From Candidatus Helarchaeota ASGARD archaeon Hel_GB_B (GTDB lineage: Archaea; Asgardarchaeota; Lokiarchaeia; Helarchaeales; HEL-GB-B), in NCBI GenBank assembly GCA_005191425.1, contig SUPR01000004.1, positions 1-32,000 of the forward strand: a stretch of 32,000 bases of DNA. Reading direction: 5' to 3'. Below the pieces are notes generated by a model that was not told where the DNA came from, did no database searches, and saw nothing but the letters and a program-made list of their open reading frames with translations. This document shows, piece by piece, positions 1,809 through 4,129 of the stretch. The translations under genes and the position numbers were made by a program. The number at the start of each line of letters is the position of its first letter. The first letter of the stretch is position 1.

Positions 1809-3044
1809 ATGAGTGTTCAACCAATGGAACCATTTTTTAAAGAGATAAAAGAACCTATTGAATTAGCAATGACTGGAAATTATGCTGTTGCAGGTGGAGT
1901 CACCCAGACTGACCCTGATGTTATATGTGCATTTCCAATTACACCCCAAACACAATCAGTAGAAGGGTTATCAGATGTAATTTATAATGGACGTTTAAAA
2001 GCAGCATTTGTTAATGTTGAATCTGAGTTAGCAGCAATGAGTTTTAGTACAGCAGCTTGCGCTTCAGGAGCAAGGACATTTACCGCCACAGCAAGTCAAG
2101 GGTATATGTTAATGATGGAAGCACTACCAATGGCAGTGGGCTGGCGAGTTCCATTAACTATGCTAATCTCAGCTAGGGCATTTAACGCACCCAATCTAAG
2201 CATCTGGAATGCTTGGGAATTCACATTGGCAGATTTGGGTTGGAATACAATTGTCGCAGAAAACGTTCAAGAAACTTATGATAATTCGATAATTTCTGTA
2301 ATGATTGCTGAAAAAACACTTTTTCCTACTATGTTTGTCCACGATGGATTCATTATCTCGCATGCAGTCCATAAATTTATTACATTAGCTGATGAACAAG
2401 TACGAAAATTAACACCTCAATTAAAAAGACATGTAATTACCCCTGAAAAACCTGGCTTATGGGGCTCTCTTGTTACTCCTGAGCAATTAATGGAACAAAG
2501 ATTAGCAATCGACCTTGCAAAAAAAGAAGTACCCCCTAAAATTGATGAAGCTTTTAAGGAATTTGGTAAAGAAACTGGAAGATATTATAATCAAATCGAG
2601 ACAAATAAATGTGATGGCGCAAAAGTCGCAATTATTTCTATGGGGTCAGTTTGCGGTAATATCGCATCATGGCAAGACAAAAACCCAGGAATTGGATTAA
2701 TTAAAATCAGAACATACCGTCCGTTCCCGACATTTCAACTTCGTAAAATTATTGAAGATTGTGGTATAGAAAAAGTCGCAATTATAGAGAAATTTGATGC
2801 TCCGGGTGCACCACTTGCTCAAGTAGGATCTAGCGTTATACCTGCCTTATACCCATTAGGAATACCCATAAAAGATTTTATAGCTGGATACGGTGGCAGA
2901 GATATAACAAAAGACGAATTTGACTTGATTAAAAGAAAAATGGACAAAGTGACTGGTATTCCATCTCAATTTTACGAATATATTGGTGTTAGAGAGTCTA
3001 AAGGAAAATTATGGGATCCAAACCCGATGGAGGTTTCAAAATGA
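1809..3044 (+). CDS. porA: Pyruvate:ferredoxin oxidoreductase alpha subunit
   Basis: MTGNYAVAGGVTQTDPDVICAFPITPQTQSVEGLS...NVESELAAMSFSTAACASGARTFTATASQGYMLMMEALP is typical PorA. Operonic with the preceding ORF. Confidence 0.95.
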   Translation: MSVQPMEPFFKEIKEPIELAMTGNYAVAGGVTQTDPDVICAFPITPQTQSVEGLSDVIYNGRLKAAFVNVESELAAMSFSTAACASGARTFTATASQGYMLMMEALPMAVGWRVPLTMLISARAFNAPNLSIWNAWEFTLADLGWNTIVAENVQETYDNSIISVMIAEKTLFPTMFVHDGFIISHAVHKFITLADEQVRKLTPQLKRHVITPEKPGLWGSLVTPEQLMEQRLAIDLAKKEVPPKIDEAFKEFGKETGRYYNQIETNKCDGAKVAIISMGSVCGNIASWQDKNPGIGLIKIRTYRPFPTFQLRKIIEDCGIEKVAIIEKFDAPGAPLAQVGSSVIPALYPLGIPIKDFIAGYGGRDITKDEFDLIKRKMDKVTGIPSQFYEYIGVRESKGKLWDPNPMEVSK

Positions 3045-4129
3045 GCGAAAGTAAAAAATCTGAAGTTGTAAAAATAGATGACCTGTTAAAAAAAGACTCA
3101 CATAATTATTTTCTCTATATTAACTATGACAATGAAGCGTTTATGAATACGGGAATTCAAGAATCTGGTTCCACACCCCCATTCGCATCAACGACAACAG
3201 GACCTGGTGGCAAAAAAATTAAGGGAAAAATCGGAATTAAACAAGATATCATCAATTCGCTCGTTTTCTTAGGGTATAAAAGTGGGTTTTTTGCAACTGC
3301 AAATCCAGCATACCCTGTTGATTTAATAGGAAAAGTCGTAGAAGCAATGAAAACTCCGGGCTGTGGCTTTATTCATATAATTTCTCCATGTATGCGTGGA
3401 TGGCGATACCCAGAAAACCAAACTTATACAATATCAAAACTTGCAACAGAATCTGGCTATTTTCCTTTATTTTCTATTCATGTTAAAGATGGAAGACCTA
3501 CATATGCTCTTAATAGGAAAATAAATACAGATAAAGAAAAATTATTCAAATTTATTTCAATGATGGGTAAATATAGACATTTATTTAAACCTGACAAACT
3601 TGATTTCAACCTCGATTCTATTTATAACAGTGTCTTACGACGGAACCAAAACATTCTCGATCTAGTCGATAAATTTAAAGGCAAATCGGAAATTCGGGTA
3701 TATTCAGGAAAATTATCTAGATTTCCAAACCAAGAACATATTTGTGGTGGACATGGATTATGCCTTGGGTGCGGTGAAGGTGAAATTATAAATCAAGTAG
3801 CAATTGCTGCTCAAATGGTCGCTGGAAAAAATGTAATTTATACAAACGCTACTAGTTGTCTAGAAGTTTCAACATCAAAAGACAATTTAGGTTCATGGAA
3901 AGTTCCATGGGTACACCATCTATTTGAAACAGCTGCTACTGTAGCTGATGGGATATCAACTGCTTATAGAATTTTAAAATCAAAAAATAAATATAAAGGA
4001 GACCTTCCATATATAATTGCATTAGGCGGAGACGGTGGCACCTTCGACATCGGTTTTCAATTCTTAAAAAGTGCTCTCGTACGATCTGGAACTTGGGGTA
4101 TAATGAATGATCTTCTTGCTGAAAAATAA
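3041..4129 (+). CDS. porB: Pyruvate:ferredoxin oxidoreductase beta subunit, apparently circularly permuted
   Basis: Contains [26 protein letters not shown]...[40 protein letters not shown] (normally the C-terminal half). This is followed by [15 protein letters not shown]...[10 protein letters not shown]...[19 protein letters not shown]...[18 protein letters not shown] (normally the N-terminal half). The ATGA overlap with porA supports start 3041 rather than the tracked 3011. Confidence 0.9.
   Translation: [362 protein letters not shown]

Follow-up and report, generated by a model that had tools for sequence, protein, structure and literature searches.

Enzymes that depend on thiamine diphosphate (ThDP) carry the GDG-X-N motif as their textbook linear signature. 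The 2-oxoacid:ferredoxin oxidoreductases (OFORs) are central enzymes of anaerobic metabolism. In their canonical beta subunit (PorB/VorB/OOR-beta, COG1013), which is a PP domain, the GDG...N motif binds the ThDP-Mg2+ diphosphate end, and four cysteines hold the proximal [4Fe-4S] cluster. Circular permutation is itself an established way for proteins to evolve. Among the ThDP families, reordering of whole domains is known, with the order PP-PYR-X in transketolase and E1 and PYR-X-PP in the decarboxylases and AHAS, while the GDG-X(~30)-N motif has been called 'strictly maintained' (bioRxiv 10.1101/2021.03.21.436335). Here we describe an OFOR beta gene in a 32,000-nt stretch of the Candidatus Helarchaeota archaeon Hel_GB_B (contig SUPR01000004.1, positions 1 to 32,000, the whole of which we call the window). 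The protein that it encodes, PorB', is circularly permuted, with its two halves in exchanged order. As in the domain-order permutations, the sequence is rearranged and the three-dimensional cofactor site would be kept, but those permutations leave GDG...N contiguous, whereas the cut in PorB' falls within the PP domain and breaks the motif.

When PorB' was compared with PDB chains using phmmer, the best match was the beta subunit of the Moorella thermoacetica oxalate oxidoreductase (OOR; 5c4i_C, E 2.8e-47), and it aligned in swapped order, with query residues 225-348 on residues 8-127 (i-E 1.4e-21) and query residues 24-185 on residues 131-287 (i-E 5.6e-23). The Methanosarcina acetivorans PFOR beta subunit (9bt4_C, E 1.3e-40) is likewise matched in two swapped stretches, as are the NCBIfam PorB, VorB and OOR-beta models (NF008819/NF008818/NF045792). 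We also built a canonical PorB hidden Markov model (HMM) of 310 positions from 51 canonical-order relatives. Its positions 125-304 align to residues 23-214 of PorB' (148.8 bits) and its positions 7-122 to residues 227-348 (113.6 bits), and between them all of positions 7-304 are covered, none of them twice. For the old C-terminal half, a comparison of profiles A1 and A2 by hhalign gave a probability of 100% with E 4e-47. Full-length collinearity with the family profile fails for native PorB' and is reached only after manual rotation, when the protein forms a single collinear stretch on positions 7-283 of the 300 in NCBIfam PorB and aligns with the canonical relative P0124 over 305 residues at 42% identity.

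The GDG is found at residues 330-332 (nt 4028-4036) and the NYDNE at residues 28-32 (nt 3122-3136), in inverted order and about 300 residues apart. PorB' therefore does not fit the linear definition GDG-X(25-30)-N, although the GDG and D30-N31 are both present. The cut lies at ...ALVR(348)SG / H(21), between profile positions 123 and 124, in the turn of the GDG-helix-turn-strand-N unit of the ThDP site. An earlier interpretation made from the letters of the window (the sequence-only reading) had proposed a circular permutation of PorB with two complete halves, a break between the GDG and the N, and a rotated junction. The swapped alignments by phmmer, NCBIfam and our own HMM, the coverage of the profile and the position of ...ALVRSG directly before H21 agree with it on each of these points. 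The 'short linker' that it placed between the halves is present but is shorter than was implied, since residues 186-214 are the canonical C-terminal helix and the new part is about 12 residues.

The operon and the parts of PorB' are laid out in the window as follows.

861..1808, + strand: porGD, gamma subunit (POR domain) fused to the delta subunit (2x[4Fe-4S] ferredoxin), 315 residues
1809..3044, + strand: porA, alpha subunit (PYR domain and domain II), 411 residues
3029..3034, + strand: GGAGGT, a ribosome-binding-like (Shine-Dalgarno-like) box read from the sequence, 6 nt 5' of ATG 3041
3041..4129, + strand: porB', permuted OFOR beta gene, ATG 3041, stop 4127-4129, 362 residues
3041..3106, + strand: N-terminal head of PorB', family-specific, residues 1-22, unaligned to the canonical HMM, with a predicted strand (7-11) and helix (12-16)
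3107..3682, + strand: old C-terminal half, residues 23-214, profile 125-304, with the N28 part of the ThDP/Mg site, C117 and the canonical C-terminal helix
3683..3718, + strand: new connector bridging the old C- and N-termini, residues 215-226, partly in the predicted strand 213-222
3719..4087, + strand: old N-terminal half, residues 227-349, profile 7-123, with C241-x-x-C244, C273-L-E275, G330-D-G332 and the next helix
4088..4126, + strand: C-terminal tail, family-specific, residues 350-362, a helix extension unaligned to the canonical HMM

Positions 861-4129 very probably constitute a three-gene POR/VOR-type OFOR operon with a gamma-delta fusion, an alpha subunit and a circularly permuted beta subunit. 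In porGD, Pfam detects the POR domain at residues 18-184 (E 1e-23) and a Fer4 dicluster at residues 247-301, and the protein is also matched by the NCBIfam PorC/PorD and OOR-delta-like models. The alpha subunit has the Pfam domains POR_N (E 9e-50) and PFOR_II; it scores 292 bits with NCBIfam PorA_Arch, below the equivalog cut-off of 550. The start of porA is one base past the stop of porGD, and the ATG of porB' overlaps the stop of porA in the ATGA at 3041-3044. The upstream genes are intact and tightly spaced, as had been supposed. An in-frame ATG at 3011 was considered as the start of porB', and 3041 is favoured by the GGAGGT box and by the lengths of the homologues (359-365 residues). No canonical porB is found in the operon or elsewhere in the 32,000-nt window.

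PorB' has what canonical PorB/VorB proteins (e.g. 9bt4 chain C) have, i.e. the four cysteines, the Glu of the ThDP loop, the GDG, the DNE and an alpha gene as neighbour. It differs from them in the rotation at 123/124, the discontinuous and inverted GDG...N, and the extra head, connector strand and tail. The operon differs too: the nearest canonical relative, P0124 (locus L086), is encoded with separate gamma, delta, alpha and beta genes, whereas the permuted family has gamma and delta fused. In this respect it resembles the Moorella OOR (5c4i, 5exd, 5exe), which likewise consists of three polypeptides with a fused gamma-delta-type subunit, and the NCBIfam model OxalOxreddelta covers residues 46-299 of porGD; the Moorella beta subunit, unlike PorB', has the canonical order. 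The NCBIfam POR models score above the OOR models for both alpha (292 vs 157 bits) and rotated beta (233 vs 198 bits). In the F-P-I-T-P-Q-T motif of alpha, the Thr presumably corresponds to a position that is Thr in PFOR and Arg in OOR.

We searched 5.8 billion proteins clustered at 90% identity for homologues of PorB', and the figures that follow come from the 120 listed homologues, which have 51-100% identity at nearly full coverage. All 120 have a DNE near residue 28, a CxxC near 240 and a GDG near 329, and all 120 have the breakpoint in common, with the C-half beginning at profile positions 121-125 and the N-half finishing at 122-127. Where they are named, the holders are Helarchaeota, Lokiarchaeota, Thorarchaeota, Hermodarchaeota or 'Promethearchaeota' metagenome-assembled genomes (MAGs). 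One of the homologues (P0001) is the identical protein, named as a Helarchaeota MAG protein at NCBI, and the identical 362-residue protein is encoded on 8 contigs of NCBI, JGI and ENA assemblies, each time after the same gamma-delta and alpha genes. In a scan of GTDB with one genome per species, at least 121 species genomes have the gene, and those that are named are nearly all Asgard. The record titles add Hodarchaeota and Sigynarchaeum, and the matches include the closed chromosome CP070831.1 and a 3.7-Mb scaffold. Among 1.84 billion representatives at 50% identity there is one full-length permuted representative (P0023) together with fragments, and every other match at this clustering has the canonical order and at most 45% identity. 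By these comparisons the permuted family is one tight clade on a long branch apart from canonical PorB.

Because the genome is metagenome-assembled, and a lone window cannot exclude misjoins, we considered whether a chimeric or mis-joined contig had reordered the halves of a normal porB. Contigs from 8 independent assemblies, the whole listed set of 120 homologues, whose identity goes as low as 51%, and 121 species genomes including a closed chromosome make the chance of this negligible. The search for the same order in other Asgard MAGs, which had been proposed as a check, finds a conserved family across the Asgard archaea instead of a single oddity, and this settles the worry over misassembly: the permutation is real.

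The gamma-delta-alpha-beta' arrangement is kept in 67 of the 71 loci with complete flanks, and the gamma-delta fusion, which always accompanies the permuted beta subunit, is an uninterrupted frame in all 65 loci with a complete upstream region. Some loci are arranged otherwise. On the 3.7-Mb scaffold (L014), neither an alpha nor a gamma-delta gene lies within 5 kb of porB' (5016-6065). In L080 (2353-6077), there is a 1.4-kb gap between porA and porB' without any open reading frame (ORF) of at least 120 residues, and there is no porGD upstream. In L021 and L024, both Hermodarchaeota, two unrelated genes (402 and 183 residues) lie between porGD and porA at ~1384-3790. Two short contigs with labels from outside the Asgard archaea carry an Asgard-type permuted porB, namely L007 (WJJB01000299.1, 'Bathyarchaeota Bin_245', 61% identity) and L045 (DATKTW010000155.1, 'Nanopelagicaceae bacterium', 53%). 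We consider that these labels are probably binning errors rather than cases of horizontal transfer. An IS240-family DDE transposase gene lies directly upstream of porGD on three NCBI contigs with the identical porB' (L001 2545-3450, L002 1-868, L003 1-863). The JGI contig L004 lacks it, and the genes 3' of porB' there (168, 208 and 403 residues) match the ORF lengths of the window. The presence or absence of the transposase is a strain-level insertion polymorphism beside the operon.

An AlphaFold2 model of PorB' computed on the family alignment has a pLDDT (predicted local distance difference test) of 80.9 and a pTM (predicted template-modelling score) of 0.88, and its top Foldseek matches are OFOR beta chains. 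For comparison, the model of canonical P0124 has a pLDDT of 94.6 and superposes on 9bt4_C over 288 columns at 1.2 Å, with template-modelling (TM) scores of 0.90/0.96. When rotated PorB' is set against the P0124 model, 81% of 305 residues fall in the same DSSP class and 20 of 20 canonical elements are recovered. The elements that PorB' has in addition are the strand 7-11 and helix 12-16 of the head, the strand 213-222 at the connector and the helix 357-361 of the tail. The pLDDT is ~95 for residues 11-20 of the head and 51-60 in the tail. Residues I10 and L16 of the head are nearly invariant, the unaligned stretch between the domains is 8-31 residues long in the 120 listed homologues (mostly 13-21), and the tail is 9-15 residues in most homologues. 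We infer that the Mg and cluster sites close in three dimensions.

In an alignment of 72 members, the invariant residues are N28, Y29, D30, N31, E32, N36-S42 (NTGIQES), C117, C241, C244, C273, E275, G330, D331 and G332, which is to say the motifs of the Mg/diphosphate ligands, the four cluster cysteines and the Glu of GC.E. Both in the HMM alignment and in that with P0124, C117, C241, C244, C273 and E275 fall on the canonical Cys and GC.E columns, so the set of cysteines for the proximal [4Fe-4S] cluster is present. Both halves are under purifying selection. Against an ortholog of 83% identity, the nonsynonymous divergence (dN) is 0.075 and 0.092 for the two halves, 0.27 for the head, and 0.27-0.34 for head and connector. 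Synonymous divergence (dS) is saturated in most pairs, which is why dN contrasts and few omega values are given; where dS is not saturated, the omega of the halves is ~0.05-0.26.

On this basis, we think it most likely that PorB' is active as a beta subunit of POR/VOR type, and the sequence-only reading had also considered the gene probably functional. Several results weigh against this reading. The region of the ThDP loop (residues 31-70) is modelled with low confidence (pLDDT 52-63); in real enzymes, this loop packs on the cofactor and the alpha subunit. A sequential Foldseek alignment to 9bt4_C takes in ~207 columns, about half of the model, with TM scores of 0.42/0.52, which is to be expected for a permutant. 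All curated family models score PorB' below their cut-offs (for NF008819, the PorB model, 219.7 bits native and 233 rotated against a cut-off of 405; for Pfam TPP_enzyme_C, 15.1 vs 21.9), because the permutation leaves two separate matches, each of half the length. Neither alpha nor beta is clearly closer to any one of the POR, VOR and OOR models; the POR models score highest for alpha and for rotated beta, yet under every equivalog cut-off. Finally, cultured Asgard strains are absent among the named matches in the best 120 of 182 matches of a protein search seeded with the CR_4 ortholog, where none is named Prometheoarchaeum or Lokiarchaeum, and the part of the MK-D1 supplementary gene table that was covered gives ordinary four-gene operons only.

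Some of the same observations would suit a relic, or a subunit that has taken on a non-catalytic role, e.g. as a scaffold or regulator, and that is conserved with no working ThDP or [4Fe-4S] site: the ThDP motif is broken in sequence, the scores are under all curated cut-offs, and the pLDDT of the ThDP loop is low. We regard this as very unlikely, given that the residue classes of the ThDP-Mg and cluster sites are invariant in 72 diverse members, that the head and connector evolve 3-4 times as fast as the halves, that translational coupling always ties the gene to an intact alpha gene and gamma-delta fusion, and that neither the operon nor the window has a canonical beta subunit.

For an active PorB', we propose the following. 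The chain would begin in the turn of the GDG-N unit, run through the old C-half, a connector of ~12 residues and the old N-half, and end with the helix that follows the GDG. The fold, the ThDP-Mg site (D331 and N31) and the cluster site (C117, C241, C244 and C273) would be rebuilt as in canonical enzymes. If they are, then ordinary chemistry is to be expected: PorB' would pair with the PYR domain of the alpha subunit, pyruvate or another 2-oxoacid would be oxidatively decarboxylated to acyl-CoA, CO2 and reduced ferredoxin, and electrons would exit to ferredoxin via the two clusters of the gamma-delta subunit. In an alpha/beta fold, the turn of a helix-turn-strand unit lies on the side of the sheet opposite the strand ends that bind ligands. 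The GDG-N motif of ThDP enzymes has been described as such a helix-turn-strand (bioRxiv 10.1101/2021.03.21.436335). The new termini should therefore be far from the cofactor, which would be why the cut is tolerated. The sequence-only reading had the cofactor site assembled from the two termini; the ligands do come from opposite ends of the chain, but the termini themselves are at the turn and would point away from the cofactor.

About 3.8 kb downstream of the operon is a gene for the large subunit of a NiFe hydrogenase, an enzyme that could plausibly take up electrons from reduced ferredoxin. Other neighbours in the window are CofC, CofD and a nitroreductase-family gene (F420 biosynthesis-like), PyrI, an Obg/YchF-like GTPase, RNase P p30 and alanyl-tRNA synthetase. 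These are ordinary chromosomal housekeeping genes (stretches cited: 7901-9211, 12566-14781 and 28365-31169, all on the - strand), and no mobile-element context is found around the operon in the window.

All members of the permuted family have a common breakpoint and form one tight clade, and this indicates that the permutation was one event. It is old enough to span MAGs with the labels Hel-, Loki-, Thor-, Hermod-, Hod- and Sigynarchaeota. Circular permutants classically arise when a tandem duplicate is trimmed at its ends, and a tandem duplication that then lost both ends, which the sequence-only reading had in mind, is plausible here and the most likely route. In many members, both ends of the protein can be aligned to profile positions 123-127, a possible terminal overlap of 4-5 residues that rests on 1-2 matching residues and weakly favours duplication and deletion. 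We considered the 22-residue head as a relic of the helix after the GDG and rejected this, given that the head is not aligned by the canonical HMM and that an overlap of at most 4-5 residues is not significant. Four proteins that looked like a split PorB (P0187, P0213, P0137 and P0139) are contig-edge fragments, and P0187 and P0213 lack a start Met. One of them, the 130-residue P0137, is a permuted-family fragment that starts with MYKRQ, which we take to be the translated Nextera transposase adaptor (ATGTATAAGAGACAG); if so, an untrimmed adaptor is present in a public assembly.

Of the 150 representatives, 15 have large inserts between the halves, including the best-scoring canonical-order relative, P0122 (852 residues, Altiarchaeales); their hosts are other uncultured archaea. 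The relatives of 640-860 residues were considered as alpha-beta fusions or as beta(N)-X-beta(C) insertions, and both were rejected when the inserts were identified as inteins, with Intein_splicing and mostly LAGLIDADG homing endonuclease domains. There are three intein sites, all inside the ThDP motif: a, GDGG|T; b, FLYV|CYDNE; and c, AYMN|TG. They are occupied as follows.

Site b: P0122, P0130, P0173, P0188, P0269, P0149, P0241
Site a: P0145, P0177, P0216
Site c: P0163, P0141, P0156
Sites a and c, two inteins in one protein: P0135

In an intein-bearing PorB such as P0122 (42% identity), the ThDP motif is also interrupted, 5-6 residues from the Asgard breakpoint; unlike in PorB', the canonical order is restored by protein splicing and there is no permutation. 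At the position where the site-b hosts have their +1 Cys, the Asgard family has an invariant Asn.

The inteins bring up another route, in which the gene was split within the ThDP motif and the pieces were re-fused in reverse, perhaps via an intein or homing-endonuclease site, by a double-strand break or a split-intein stage. Other archaeal PorB proteins do have inteins at three sites within GDG...N, one of them (profile 129|130, site b) only 5-6 residues from the breakpoint at 123/124, and a tandem N-C-N-C intermediate, as duplication would leave, was not found among the 150 representatives at 50% clustering. We nevertheless think that fission and fusion is unlikely to be the origin. The breakpoint does not fall exactly at any intein site, neither the head (22 residues) nor the tail (13 residues) has an intein remnant, P0187 and P0213, which looked like half proteins, come from the edges of contigs, and the small terminal overlap fits duplication slightly better. 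Since inteins are in general drawn to conserved cofactor motifs, their closeness to the breakpoint may also be chance. A link between inteins or their endonucleases and the Asgard breakpoint is thus a low-probability lead, because the positions do not coincide and no remnant is found. Its fullest form, a single ancient rare change that became fixed, along with the gamma-delta fusion, in much of the Asgard archaea and that was triggered at an intein homing site (by a misrepaired endonuclease break or a split-intein stage), is a long shot. If it were true, this would be the first natural intein-associated circular permutation and a clean clade marker for Asgard, and the OFOR would be reorganised, with a new clasp made up of head, connector strand and tail. 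The breakpoint and the three intein sites lie within ~30 residues of each other, which makes this part of porB a hotspot of gene-structure change.

In full-text literature drawn mostly from outside the subscription journals, we found no account of a permutation within a domain, whether for OFORs or for Asgard archaea, and none of this form of PorB, which the sequence-only reading had not known to be described. PorB' is a real and conserved variant of a well-known enzyme subunit, apparently undescribed, and not a new kind of system. With its motif split and inverted and the residues of the motif invariant, it is a natural experiment in which a PP domain accepts new termini at the helix-turn-strand turn, and could be used in the engineering of ThDP enzymes and OFORs for split or permuted designs and for the choice of insertion sites.

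At NCBI, PorB' proteins are labelled 'hypothetical protein', and at JGI they are labelled OFOR beta subunit without comment. OFORs have been described as being at the core of Asgard energy metabolism, in which 2-oxoacids derived from amino acids are converted to acyl-CoA and then yield ATP (Imachi et al. 2020, PMC7015854). Metabolic reconstructions of Asgard archaea that rely on HMM thresholds may show a POR without its beta subunit, so that the complexes seem incomplete. As a rearrangement of single origin, the permutation is also a rare genomic change, of potential use in testing Asgard branching orders.

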